Part shown: piece by piece, positions 16,648 to 46,412 of the stretch | Numbering within the stretch: the first letter of the stretch is position 1 | Layout: every line of letters begins with the position of its first letter | Source of the DNA: an uncultured Actinomycetota bacterium | Lineage (GTDB): Bacteria; Actinomycetota; Actinomycetes; CAVWCF01 | NCBI GenBank assembly: GCA_963753435.1 | Contig: CAVWCF010000005.1 | Coordinates: 153,373 to 217,372, forward strand | Direction: 5' to 3' | Length of the DNA: 64,000 nt | Position numbers and translations under genes: made by a program | The notes under the pieces: generated by a model | Told to the model about the DNA's origin: nothing | What the model saw: the letters and a program-made list of their open reading frames with translations, nothing else | Databases searched by the model: none

Positions 16648-16739
16648 CTGGCAGAGGCTAGGGTCAGCCCTACTTCCTCACGCGCCGCCCCTTCCCCTTG
16701 CACCATCGCCGTAATGACGTTCGACGCTTCGGAGTGCTC

Positions 16740-17528
16740 GTGTCTCACATAGTCGCCGTCGCCAATCAGAAGGGCGGCGTGGCCAAGACCACCACGGTCG
16801 CGTCTATCGGCGCTGCGCTGTCGGAGTCCGGCGTCCGTGTGCTGTTGGTGGACCTGGATCCACAGGCCTGTTTGACGTTCTCGCTGGGTATCGACCCTGA
16901 TGACATTCCGCTTTCAGTCCACGATGTGCTGCTCGGGCGGGTTGGCATTCGGCTGCCGATCGTGTCGACTCAGGACGGACCAGACCTCTTGCCGGCCACG
17001 ATCGATCTCGCAGGTACCGAGGTCATGCTCAACACCCGAGCCGGTCGCGAGTTGGTGCTGAAGCAGGAGCTGGCGGAGTTGTCGGACTCCTACGACGTCA
17101 TCCTCCTGGACTGTTCACCGTCGCTGGGGGTGCTCACCCTGAACGCGCTGGCCGCGGCCGATGAGGTGATCGTGCCGTTGCAGTGCGAGACGTTGAGCCA
17201 TCGCGGTGTCGGGCAGTTGCTGGACACCATCGGCGAGGTGCGCCGGGTCCTCAACCCCGGGTTGGACCTGCACGGGGTGCTGCCGACGATGTTCGACAGC
17301 CGAACCACGCACGCCAACGCGGTGTTGGGCGATGTTTCCGAGCGATACAACGTGGCGGTCTTGATGCCGCCCATCGCGCGCAGCATCCGCTTTGCCGAGG
17401 CCCCGGCGGTGGGCCGGTCGGTGCTGAGTACCGCCAAGGGCACGCCCGGCGCGCACGCCTATCGAGAGCATGCCGCCGCGCTGGCGATTCGCGCGGGAAT
17501 TCGTCCCCGTTTGGTCGTGGGCGAATGA
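16740..17528 (+). CDS. Orphan ParA/Soj family ATPase
   Basis: ANQKGGVAKTT deviant Walker A, DLDPQ, DCSPSLG, RFAEAP. GTG 16740 follows a GGAG RBS. No parB nearby. Confidence 0.92.
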   Translation: MSHIVAVANQKGGVAKTTTVASIGAALSESGVRVLLVDLDPQACLTFSLGIDPDDIPLSVHDVLLGRVGIRLPIVSTQDGPDLLPATIDLAGTEVMLNTRAGRELVLKQELAELSDSYDVILLDCSPSLGVLTLNALAAADEVIVPLQCETLSHRGVGQLLDTIGEVRRVLNPGLDLHGVLPTMFDSRTTHANAVLGDVSERYNVAVLMPPIARSIRFAEAPAVGRSVLSTAKGTPGAHAYREHAAALAIRAGIRPRLVVGE

Positions 17529-43973: not shown

Positions 43974-45062
43974 TCAGGCGGCGGGCTGCATGTACCAGGA
44001 ACAGCCGCACATCGGGTGTTGGTTCAACCGTCGGCGGACCGGGTCGTCCGTGGCGTTCAGCAGCCAGGCCACCTCGGCGGGCCGGATCAGGCCGGGCGCG
44101 TCGAGGTGCGCCAGCGCGGCTGCTGCTGCCAGGCCTGCGGCGATCGCCACTGCTGCCCCGGCCACGGCGTTGCAGGAGGTGTAGGCCAGTTGGGTGGTCA
44201 ACGTCGGCCACGCGGGGTCGTCGTCGGTACGACTGTGGGCCCAGCAGTACAGGCACGCGGTCCTTGTTGGTACGACCAGGGGCCCAACCTGCAGGTGATG
44301 GGCGCGGGCGGCCAGGACCAGGTGTGGTGTTCCGGTGCGCATCAAGGCGTCCACCGTGGCCGGATCCAGGTCGGACCCGTCCGCCAGGACCACGAGGTCC
44401 CGGTCGCCTTCGGGCCCAAGTAGCCGCACGTCGGCGCCGGCCGCCATCGCGGTTTCGGCTGCGGTCCTCCCGCGCGCGTCGCCGGTGGCTTGGATCGCGC
44501 CCGGGAAGACATCGGCATCGGTTGCCTCGTCGGCGTCGACCACTCGCAAGCGCCCGATCCCGGCTGCCGCCAGCAGTGATGCCAGCAGGGCCGCCCACCG
44601 CATGCCACCGCGAATCTCGACTGCGCTGCGACGCCGACGCGCAAGGATCTTGCTTGCGCTTGCTGCGCCGGACTGTGCGACGAGCCAGTCTCGCTCCGCG
44701 CCAAGCGCGGCATGCGCTGCCGGCGATAGCACCTTCAGGTCGTCAGGATCGGAGTGCGACTTGTCCAGTACGCCGGCGCCTAGCAGTTCCTCGAACAGCT
44801 GCTGCGCTTTCGCCGGATCCGGTGCGGCCGCGCCCCCAGCCGGATCTGCGTCCGCTATCAACAGGTCGTGCGCGGAAGCATTCGGCACGATCCAAGTCGG
44901 ACCAGGGAAGAGACCTACCTGTAGGCCGCCGTCGGGTCGGGTGAGCAGCGGTTGGCGGATGCGGCGGACTCGCAAGGGCACCTCCGTCGTGACGGGCAAG
45001 GCTGGGACAGCGGCGGACTCAACCATCCCTAGGCGTGGCGAGTCGGGTTCGTCCACAAGCAC
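43974..45062 (-). CDS. ThiF-like / TOMM leader-binding-like protein (Rv3196-type)
   Basis: LQVG, LAAAGIG, PHL, VGPLVVP..TACLYC, D.DPAWP, HPMCGC. Start is uncertain (45026 or later is possible). Confidence 0.75.
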   Translation of the reverse strand: MLVDEPDSPRLGMVESAAVPALPVTTEVPLRVRRIRQPLLTRPDGGLQVGLFPGPTWIVPNASAHDLLIADADPAGGAAAPDPAKAQQLFEELLGAGVLDKSHSDPDDLKVLSPAAHAALGAERDWLVAQSGAASASKILARRRRSAVEIRGGMRWAALLASLLAAAGIGRLRVVDADEATDADVFPGAIQATGDARGRTAAETAMAAGADVRLLGPEGDRDLVVLADGSDLDPATVDALMRTGTPHLVLAARAHHLQVGPLVVPTRTACLYCWAHSRTDDDPAWPTLTTQLAYTSCNAVAGAAVAIAAGLAAAAALAHLDAPGLIRPAEVAWLLNATDDPVRRRLNQHPMCGCSWYMQPAA

Positions 45063-45133: not shown

Positions 45134-45292
45134 TCAGGCCTTGCCGAGGATCCGGTTCAGCTTGGTGCCGCAGACCGGGCAGATGCCCTTGGCCATGCGG
45201 CGGCCGGAGTCGCTCACCTCAACGTGGCCGGTGAACTCGCGCTTCTCCTTGCACTTCACGCAGTAGGCCTCGCCCGTGTACTCCTCGGCCAT
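45134..45292 (-). CDS. DUF5679-type 52-aa zinc-ribbon protein
   Basis: Not in the ORF track. GAAGGAGGAG RBS; MAEEYTGEAYCVKCKEKREFTGHVEVSDSGRRMAKGICPVCGTKLNRILGKA*. Has its own TAGGCT -10 box at 45344-45339. Confidence 0.9.
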   Translation of the reverse strand: MAEEYTGEAYCVKCKEKREFTGHVEVSDSGRRMAKGICPVCGTKLNRILGKA

Positions 45293-45454
45293 GCCCTCCT
45301 CCTTCGATCGCTCGGCGTGCTCCGCCGGATTGCGCGTCAGCCTAGGCCCTGCGGGGCTTGGATTCGCTGCATCGTCGTGGTCGTGTCGCGCGGAGCGTCA
45401 GACCTTTTGCCGGCGTTCGTCGTCGGTCATCGGTCTGAAAGTGGCCACCGGTCG

Positions 45455-45546
45455 GACGAAAGATACGAGGCCCCCGGCTGTCCCATCGGATCCGTCCGCC
45501 TTCCCCTTGCGAACGGCTCCGGTGGTAGGGCCGGGGGCCTCGGTGC
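45455..45546 (-). ncRNA. Candidate ~90-nt hairpin sRNA
   Basis: Perfect 13-bp closing stem (45466-45478 with 45530-45542), nested inner stems, AAGGGGAAG loop, pyrimidine-rich tail. Begins about 7 nt after a canonical promoter. Confidence 0.5.
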
Positions 45547-45551
45547 GCCGG

Positions 45552-45581
45552 ACGGTAGGCGGGTTAGGTGGGCGCGGTCAA
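45552..45581 (-). promoter_or_regulatory. Housekeeping-sigma-type promoter TTGACC-N18-TACCGT
   Basis: -35 at 45581-45576 and -10 at 45557-45552 on the minus strand. Confidence 0.6.
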
Positions 45582-45599: not shown

Positions 45600-45779
45600 T
45601 GTGGACAACCTGTGGATTCCCCTGGGGACCAGTCGGCGAGGCGTTGTGGACAACCTTCGAGAAGCCTGGGGAAACGCTGGGGAGTCGTCCCGGATTAGGC
45701 CGTTGACCTGCGGCAACGTCATCCACCGGGTGTGGACTCAAATGGTTACGGGAATCTGAACACCTGGCCAATATCCACT
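45600..45779. promoter_or_regulatory. Cluster of DnaA-box-like 9-mers
   Basis: Two exact TGTGGACAA (reverse complement of TTGTCCACA) at 45600 and 45645, plus degenerate copies at 45611, 45623, 45667, 45678, 45719, 45731 and 45771. Confidence 0.6.
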
Positions 45780-45830: not shown

Positions 45831-46412
45831 GTGTCCGACCAGACTTCCGCAATAGATCGCCCGGTTCCCTTGGCCAACCCGCCCGTTGAGGTGCGGCGGT
45901 CCAAGCGCCGCAAGCGCACGGTCTCGGCTCACCGCGAAGGCGACACCATCGTGGTGAACATCCCGGCGCGCATGACCAAGGCCGAAGAGCGCGAGTGGAT
46001 CGGCCTGATGGTGGAACGGATCACCGCCTCCGAACGCCGCCGCCGGCCTTCGGATGAGCAACTCTTCGACCGGGCCATAGAGCTGTCTGAGCAGTACCTG
46101 GATGGCCAGGCACGGCCGCGATCGGTGCGTTGGGTCGACAACCAGCGGTCCCGCTGGGGCTCGGCGACGCCGGTTGACCGAACCATTCGGATCAGCAGCC
46201 GCTTGCGGGGAGCCCCTTCCTACGTCGTCGACTACGTGCTTCTGCACGAACTGGCCCATCTGCTGCGCGGTGACCACAGCAAGGAGTTCTGGTCGCTGCT
46301 GGCCGGGTATCCACAGTTGGAGCGGGCCAAGGGATTCCTCGAAGGAGTCGATGCTTCGGCCAACGGCGACCTGGCCGAAGTCGGCTCGGCTGCGACCGAC
46401 GACCAGGGGTAG
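45831..46412 (+). CDS. M48/YgjP (DUF45)-like zinc metallopeptidase domain protein
   Basis: VEVRRSKRRKRTVSA, RWGS, DYVLLHELAHL, H...FW. Confidence 0.88.
   Translation: MSDQTSAIDRPVPLANPPVEVRRSKRRKRTVSAHREGDTIVVNIPARMTKAEEREWIGLMVERITASERRRRPSDEQLFDRAIELSEQYLDGQARPRSVRWVDNQRSRWGSATPVDRTIRISSRLRGAPSYVVDYVLLHELAHLLRGDHSKEFWSLLAGYPQLERAKGFLEGVDASANGDLAEVGSAATDDQG

Follow-up and report, generated by a model that had tools for sequence, protein, structure and literature searches.

Between a DUF5679 gene and a divergent YgjP-like gene of an uncultured actinobacterium lies a long inverted repeat behind promoter-like hexamers: is it the gene of an independent small RNA, and if so, what would drive it and what would it act upon? 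The locus belongs to a 64,000-nt stretch of DNA (the window), to which positions refer unless a locus (L) or contig (C) is named. The coordination of replication with segregation and division, to which the answer led, is poorly understood in actinobacteria.

Results

Fold and strand of the hairpin

The initial annotation had described a minus-strand hairpin with 13-bp arms and nested stems behind a promoter TTGACC (45581-45576)-N18-TACCGT (45557-45552), and all of these features were found at those positions, the fold being as described and the promoter being supported by its conservation (Table 1). The minus strand was predicted to form a single long hairpin (−65 kcal/mol, z −3.9) with an open 9-nt loop (probability unpaired ∼1.0). 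The plus strand folded equally well or better (z −5.7), so the strand is not given by folding alone and the orientation rests on comparison, namely on the conserved promoter, on a covariance model score of 76 bits for the minus strand versus 38 bits for the other, and on the excess of G-U/U-G over A-C/C-A cells (70 versus 31) in the alignment read as minus strand. The ends given for the RNA are predictions from the spacing to the −10 element, the distance from −10 to stem being 8–12 nt in 91 homologues. The pyrimidine-rich tail after the stem received no call in a terminator scan; among the homologues the T fraction was 0.21–0.55 over the first 9 nt past the stem versus 0.11–0.14 at positions 10–12.

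Table 1. Features of the hairpin locus and of a candidate target in the same window.
Feature	Position	Strand	Remarks
Predicted sRNA, ∼85–89 nt	45457..45545	minus	outer 13-bp stem, variable middle, inner 8-bp stem, 9-nt loop
Outer-stem arms, 13 bp	45542-45530 and 45478-45466	minus	
Hairpin loop AAGGGGAAG	45508-45500	minus	9 nt
Seed GGGGAAG inside loop AAGGGGAAG	45500..45506	minus	in 92/93 homologues collected without use of the loop; predicted unpaired
Pyrimidine-rich tail TATCTTTC after outer stem	45465-45458	minus	likely a weak intrinsic terminator
−35 element TTGACC	45576..45581	minus	promoter pattern in 23/23 loci found by a model without promoter term
−10 element TACCGT	45552..45557	minus	homologues TA(G/C)(C/G)GT-like
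Seven DnaA-like boxes, head-to-tail	45600..45739	minus	24, 35, 47, 69, 91, 102 and 155 bp from −35
Perfect TTGTCCACA boxes	45608-45600 and 45653-45645	minus	
DUF5679 gene, downstream	45134..45292	minus	own −10 TAGGCT (45344-45339) and RBS; not an obligate part
YgjP-like (M48) gene, divergent	45831..46412	plus	Pfam PF01863; shares the intergenic region with the RNA
Predicted target site CCTTCCCCTTGC, leader of ParA-family ATPase gene	16690..16701	plus	predicted unpaired, P 0.83
ParA/Soj-family ATPase gene, candidate target	16740..17528	plus	within the same window as the RNA

A covariance search of the hairpin against Rfam 15 gave no family at gathering score, the sole match being mir-341 with 18.2 bits versus 90, which agrees with the initial judgement that it resembled no known RNA family. 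No second copy was found in the 2.17-Mb genome (G000), and the hairpin being single-copy, a dispersed repeat, named beforehand as an outcome that would overturn the proposal, was ruled out. A small peptide was rejected as well, as a start codon lay 3–12 nt past the loop in only 36 of 91 homologues and no conserved ORF was indicated.

Assembled RNA contigs covered the locus patchily, at depth 2–18 in 8 of 24 listed runs, and contigs of this sort cannot show transcript ends. One of them spanned from 45561 through the hairpin to 45329 and one crossed the promoter; in one study a contig of depth 17.7 ended at 45561 next to an upstream contig of depth 4, which is no evidence of a start. A contig of a relative had 15 listed differences in 45359-45460, whereas 45461-45561 had none, as would be expected from selection on the hairpin.

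Conservation and distribution

Among 30 loci fetched by likeness to the region, promoter, hairpin and loop were present together in 19, and two more were recovered by the covariance model; of the remaining nine, two were truncated at a contig border. In an alignment of 47 copies all 21 pairs showed changes on both sides, and 89.6% of cells were paired; none of 500 shuffles reached its covariation score, and slid controls dropped from 0.41 to 0.05–0.16. For the inner stem taken over divergent and paralogous copies the values were 0.75 versus 0.22. Both stems therefore covary across homologues, as the check suggested by the initial annotation had asked. Since most sets had required the loop, a loop-free scan was run on the promoter and outer arm only. 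It yielded 112 distinct full-length matches, 93 of them with a complementary arm, and the single departure from GGGGAAG among these 93 was CGGGAAG.

With the covariance model, 73 of the 141 genomes of the class, among them all eight of 1.4–1.5 Mb, gave one copy each and no more; as the scoring took in only 32 candidates per genome, misses are weak evidence. Searches by pattern and by synteny brought in 12 more copies, divergent ones, and together with four genomes that hold only the paralogue described below, the RNA or its paralogue occurred in 89 of 141 genomes. Named carriers include Nocardioides, Marmoricola, Frankiales, Sporichthyaceae and a Nitriliruptorales genome. No copy turned up in a named Streptomyces or Nocardiopsis genome or, among the families searched, in f28 (large genomes), f46, f47 (F6-bearing) or f55; these labels, like f38 below, are codes, and any taxon name put to them would be a guess. 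Retention in the streamlined 1.4–1.5-Mb genomes argues for an important role. The RNA was not found in f28, in a named Streptomyces genome or in f47, and studies of model actinobacteria may for this reason have overlooked it.

Several further groups of matches were discarded. None of 66 pattern matches on viral contigs was confirmed by the model, matches in three f28 genomes proved to be the ribosome-binding site before an ORF whose start we take to be that of an HU-family protein, and folding and synteny checks led to the removal of most of the 121 matches of a first loose scan of the collection as chance ones. In G092 a short hairpin linked to a promoter (L609:1488-1521 minus) has a GGGGAAG loop; it may be a minimal copy and was left uncounted. 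Unpublished genomes entered the analysis as follows: L016 (G032) in alignments A1–A4 and the models, L014 (G036) in A1 and the count of convergent genes, G044 in the counts over 141 genomes, in that of dnaA leaders and in the paralogue set, and G030 in the 30-locus tally alone; no conclusion hangs on them alone. In a literature search that covered article listings and the main text of PMC11109978, no description of the RNA was found. The hairpin is almost certainly a real, so far undescribed and widely conserved actinobacterial small-RNA family.

A second RNA family was noticed with the same promoter type and the GGGGAAG loop (L545, L554 and L565-L578, for example L570:1470-1545 minus). Its internal loop is conserved and different (GAGUAGAYAAC / GGHACCAAAG), and its locus adjoins genes for an ANTAR response regulator, an ABC-ATPase and tRNAs. 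This paralogue is present in G004, G125, G074 and G107, among others, and missing from the genome of the window; its own pattern detected it in 14 of 141 genomes. Rfam had no match for the paralogue or for the divergent copies.

Independence from the DUF5679 gene

The YgjP-like gene was linked to the RNA in most homologous loci. A riboswitch or leader of DUF5679 would always lie 5' of this same co-oriented gene, and this was not so: in L007 a convergent enoyl-CoA hydratase gene stands directly after the hairpin, between it and DUF5679, the same arrangement was seen in L008, L014, L024, L026 and L030 as judged by sequence likeness, and in family f38 (e.g. L029) the RNA unit is inverted away from DUF5679. 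The RNA is therefore not a DUF5679 leader. Covariation and the convergent gene of the relatives support the original proposal of an independent RNA of ∼90 nt with its own promoter, and what was found, a stand-alone gene with its own promoter and a conserved structure, is what is expected of a trans-acting small RNA.

Promoter and upstream boxes

The promoter, with its 18-nt spacer, matches the E. coli consensus at only 8 of 12 positions and was not reported by a generic promoter scan; its TTGAC/TAnnnT pattern is conserved upstream of the homologues. Beyond it lie the boxes, termed DnaA-like for their likeness to the DnaA-box consensus. The array that had been annotated as one of DnaA boxes consists of two perfect TTGTCCACA boxes and of five degenerate TCC(A/C)CA boxes, all on one strand. 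It is the only such array in the genome. Across 95 homologues, TCC(A/C)CA boxes peaked at −24, −36, −47, −58, −69, −79, −91 and −102 from the −35 element, a spacing of ∼11 bp or one box per helical turn. Head-to-tail arrays of 11-bp period are what DnaA filaments use at origins. At least three same-strand boxes were present in 85 of 94 loci; the array was lost in the other nine, and the RNA was retained where the boxes were lost.

This phased array in the homologues makes the DnaA control suggested initially a likely one, and we consider that the RNA gene is quite probably regulated by DnaA. A cluster of DnaA boxes adjoins the promoter, as in regulation of the sda type, and as their position, on the upstream side of the core promoter, is that found at Bacillus subtilis sda, we infer activation rather than repression. 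Two other motifs were recorded nearby. CAGGTC (45705-45710, minus, starting at 45710) lies in the gap of the array and is also conserved in homologues at about −121 to −132 from −35, with 40 of 94 loci in one bin. A DnaA-like box (45049-45057) is also found just 3' of DUF5679, before a ThiF-like gene, and likewise in L012 and L020.

Complementary sites in the genome

The exact complement of the loop sequence GGGGAAG is CTTCCCC, which occurs 258 times in the genome, 56 times in non-coding DNA, with 36 sites listed near gene starts. Twenty-three downstream genes, picked before annotation by closeness of the site to the start or to a −10 element with ORF lengths in view, were annotated, and ten proved to be genes of replication, segregation, division or the cell wall (dnaA, dnaE, ftsZ, smc, ftsK, a ParA-family ATPase, glmU, an LCP ligase and two NlpC/P60 hydrolases); four were others and nine were without match. 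CTTCCCC was the commonest of its 21 permutations in upstream windows (31 matches) and occurred five times just after a −10-like hexamer versus 0–2 times for the other permutations. In the dnaA-rpmH region it follows the dnaA −10 element by 12 nt. Outside the RNA gene, the genome holds no 12-nt perfect complement of the loop region other than the site CCTTCCCCTTGC, which by itself is a modest finding, as ∼0.5 such complements are expected genome-wide from an estimate by composition.

Predicted duplexes of the loop with the 13 mRNA sites tested had energies of −15.9 to −26.2 kcal/mol, with a seed of 7 nt, which is short; the corresponding values were −14.5 kcal/mol for the 6C RNA and −7.7 kcal/mol for the anti-SD. 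The sites at mraW, parA, the LCP gene and one hydrolase gene were open in predicted folds, those of dnaA and dnaE mostly paired (P unpaired 0.09 and 0.12). The distance from the predicted start is ∼25 nt or less for most sites, and these are often far from the ribosome-binding site. Other meanings of the motif were set aside: as regards pairing with the tRNA-Gly anticodon, tRNAs hold CUUCCC or CUUCC and not the full 7-mer, and a degenerate DnaA box is disfavoured by the free 3' base (C14 A9 G7 T6) and by the placement on one strand. The predicted fold of the dnaA leader was not a preformed hairpin with its loop open, and Rfam has no family for this leader.

Some peculiarities of this genome were also noted. 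The dnaA leader has a second CTTCCCC, next to a real box, and this one may be a degenerate DnaA box. Thirteen called genes, some apparently leaderless, have CTTCCCC in the first 45 coding nt and are further candidate targets (among them C1:40135-41649 minus and C1:840299-841426 plus). The ftsZ gene is called at 135 aa only, and a single 821-aa frame seems to join glmU with prs; both entries (L402/L415; C1:101541-101948 and C5:46493-48958) are likely assembly frameshifts.

A CUUCCCC loop was also present in a match to the mraW motif between mraZ and mraW (47.7 bits versus a gathering score of 50). The published alignment of this motif (RF01746) has the same CUUCCCC loop, and the motif was listed as probably cis-regulatory with an ambiguous riboswitch call (PMC2864571). 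The motif with this loop is retained in G049 (77 bits), G094 (64.8), G055 (40.8) and a C. glutamicum control; a promoter-linked GGGGAAG hairpin was searched for in G049, G094 and G055 and none was found.

Co-occurrence of sites and RNA

In 145 dnaA-rpmH regions a site after a −10-like hexamer was seen in 34 of 93 carriers versus 2 of 52 others, while in family f38 the site was in the rpmH leader instead (8/8). In these f38 genomes of 1.4–1.5 Mb (L224-L230, L233) CUUCCCC has thus shifted out of the dnaA leader, where a DnaA-like box is found, into that of the divergent rpmH, and the RNA was without a box array in the two loci tested.

A first panel comprised 17 model-positive and 13 model-negative genomes, in which the site was found upstream of dnaE in 13/17 versus 2/12, of smc in 10/17 versus 3/13, of ftsK in 9/17 versus 2/13 and of ftsZ in 4/17 versus 0/13. 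The prediction that negatives bearing sites hide the RNA was borne out in three of five (G012, G111 and G091), the RNA not being found by targeted search in the remaining two (G005 and G043); G004 and G125, also with a dnaA site, have the paralogue with the same loop. With carrier status updated and a 130-nt window upstream, the proportions in carriers versus non-carriers became 15/20 versus 0/9 for dnaE, 12/20 versus 0/10 for smc, 10/20 versus 1/10 for ftsK, 6/20 versus 1/10 for dnaA and 4/20 versus 0/10 for ftsZ, three genomes having been moved to the carriers after their sites were seen. Non-overlapping permuted motifs scored 0–3 of 60, and as the panel genomes are related and not independent, p-values overstate the difference. 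Three of the 20 carriers (G039, G133 and G031) had no site in any of the five genes. The ftsK site fell in the first codons (about codons 4–6) of an apparently leaderless message in most positive genomes, so that position relative to the 5' end matters.

A conserved, predicted unpaired seed thus goes together with conserved complementary sites in mRNAs, as in trans-acting small RNAs. As the loop is invariant, there was no compensatory change between RNA and target to exploit. The suggestion that the loop pairs with C-rich RNAs gains support from these comparisons, which point to CUUCCCC near the 5' ends of cell-cycle mRNAs and within the mraW motif as the partner; the resemblance of the loop to an SD sequence appears incidental. 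Pairing of the loop with the CUUCCCC sites is, on this evidence from sequence, probable, and the link between the GGGGAAG RNA and these sites is new.

Two conserved elements of a different kind were met in the same upstream regions: TTGACATAAC...CCTC.A.TTGAGG upstream of ftsZ (L420-L449), strongly conserved in most genomes and probably a regulator site, and, in f38, a palindrome related to it, CCCTCAAGTTGA, that precedes smc (L461, L467).

Discussion

The reading that we favour, which as a whole has in our estimation a little better than an even chance, is that of a DnaA-driven small RNA which would pair with cell-cycle mRNAs and dampen them. DnaA would assemble on the phased upstream boxes and activate the promoter, as for B. 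subtilis sda, and a small RNA of ∼85 nt would be made. Its exposed GGGGAAG loop would then capture CUUCCCC near the 5' ends of cell-cycle mRNAs, perhaps as the transcripts emerge, and the output of the dnaA, dnaE, smc, ftsK, ftsZ, parA-like and mraW messages would be dampened. The result would be a feedback checkpoint in which a build-up of free DnaA leads the RNA to lower initiator, replicase, segregation and division proteins together. As for the negative sign, we lean towards it because of the leaderless ftsK site at about codons 4–6, where pairing would block the ribosome.

That no independent RNA exists, and that the hairpin is instead a DnaA-titration site with a palindrome acting as DNA, a terminator or the 5' leader of DUF5679, is highly unlikely. 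The plus strand folds too, the outer stem resembles ordinary terminators and one RNA contig runs through the hairpin from 45561 to 45329, but such explanations do not account for the one-strand excess of G-U pairs, for an invariant loop inside covarying stems, for the convergent gene directly after the hairpin in several relatives and the inverted unit of f38, or for the persistence of the RNA where the boxes are lost; the hairpin is almost certainly a real RNA. Hardly more credit can be given to a loop that titrates an RNA-binding protein of the CsrA type or pairs with 6C or with the 16S anti-SD, suggestive as the GGA in the exposed loop, its SD-like look and the 6C gene of the same genome may be. 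RNAs titrating CsrA/RsmA have several GGA-loop hairpins, and here there is a single loop; csrA (PF02599) was detected in 30 genomes of the 141, with no match in G000, in most carriers or in any genome of five families in which all carry the RNA (0/8, 0/8, 0/6, 0/5 and 0/5). The protein titration offered in the initial annotation thus finds no support. Pairing with 6C and the anti-SD was rejected, as 6C was found in 0/8 genomes of f38, which all carry the RNA, and both duplexes are weaker than all 13 mRNA sites.

The same RNA and the same pairing could also act with the opposite sign, the loop capping, protecting or opening mRNA 5' ends in a DnaA feed-forward that raises replicase, SMC and division proteins. 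Stabilisation has a precedent in FasX, which stabilises ska mRNA, and would suit both the placement of most sites near the predicted start and away from the ribosome-binding site and the folded-back dnaA and dnaE sites, which pairing could open; at the first codons of the leaderless ftsK message, however, pairing should hinder initiation, and we regard this alternative as unlikely. Rather less likely still, CUUCCCC might be read mainly by a protein or another factor, with the GGGGAAG RNA as a masking modulator or one of several readers. This would explain why lineages that gave no RNA still have the mraW motif and why some carriers are without sites in the genes tested, but outside mraW the sites are nearly confined to carriers (smc, dnaE and ftsZ leaders, 31/60 versus 0/29), they predicted RNA copies that had been missed, and no such protein was identified.

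With the RNA, the mraW motif gains a specific candidate reader, and a seven-base code, a list of targets and DnaA as the input from upstream come with it. It is conceivable, with a chance just short of even, that the RNA is a DnaA-sensing riboregulator of the cell cycle throughout the class. A DnaA filament on the array phased at 11 bp would then drive one short RNA, and its invariant 7-nt loop would be the trans ligand so far missing for the mraW motif and for a CUUCCCC regulon of dnaA, dnaE, smc, ftsK, ftsZ, a parA-like gene and the cell-wall operon. In that case replication initiation would be coupled to segregation and division, and the paralogue near the ANTAR/ABC-transporter locus would feed a second signal into the same sites.

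Among known systems, B. subtilis sda has a DnaA-box cluster away from oriC with positive control of the downstream gene (PMC3245932), but its output is a protein and not an RNA. The mraW motif (RF01746) has a conserved loop CUUCCCC that exactly complements that of the RNA and is present in the same genome, but it is a cis element, here a candidate target, which also occurs where the RNA was not found. F6 (RF01791) is likewise a single actinobacterial hairpin of similar build, but with a C-rich loop, at another locus and without a box array; the hairpin did not match RF01791, and identity with F6 was ruled out. The 6C sRNA (RF01066) is actinobacterial and chaperone-independent, and pairs through exposed G-C-rich loops with targets including dnaB (PMC6486639), but it has two hairpins with C-rich loops of opposite polarity, in contrast to the one hairpin and G-rich loop found here. 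The 6C of this genome is a separate gene with a different distribution (L152:1501-1574, that is C1:1500874-1500947); at 44.8 bits it falls just under the gathering score, and its second stem resembles the outer stem of the RNA. CcnA of Caulobacter, a non-coding RNA linked to the replication cycle, also pairs with cell-cycle leaders, but is origin-encoded, presumably CtrA-activated, directed at ctrA and gcrA, and from a different phylum (PMC8959179). EcpR1 of Sinorhizobium meliloti acts in trans and independently of Hfq, and its conserved GC-rich loop pairs with cell-cycle mRNAs including dnaA; it is alphaproteobacterial, has two stem-loops and a C-rich loop UCCGCCGCAUCU, is induced by stress and the stringent response, and is reported with neither a phased DnaA array nor a class of 5'-end sites in the sections of PMC4414408 covered. 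The RNA described here would act like EcpR1, CcnA and 6C, yet belongs to none of these families.
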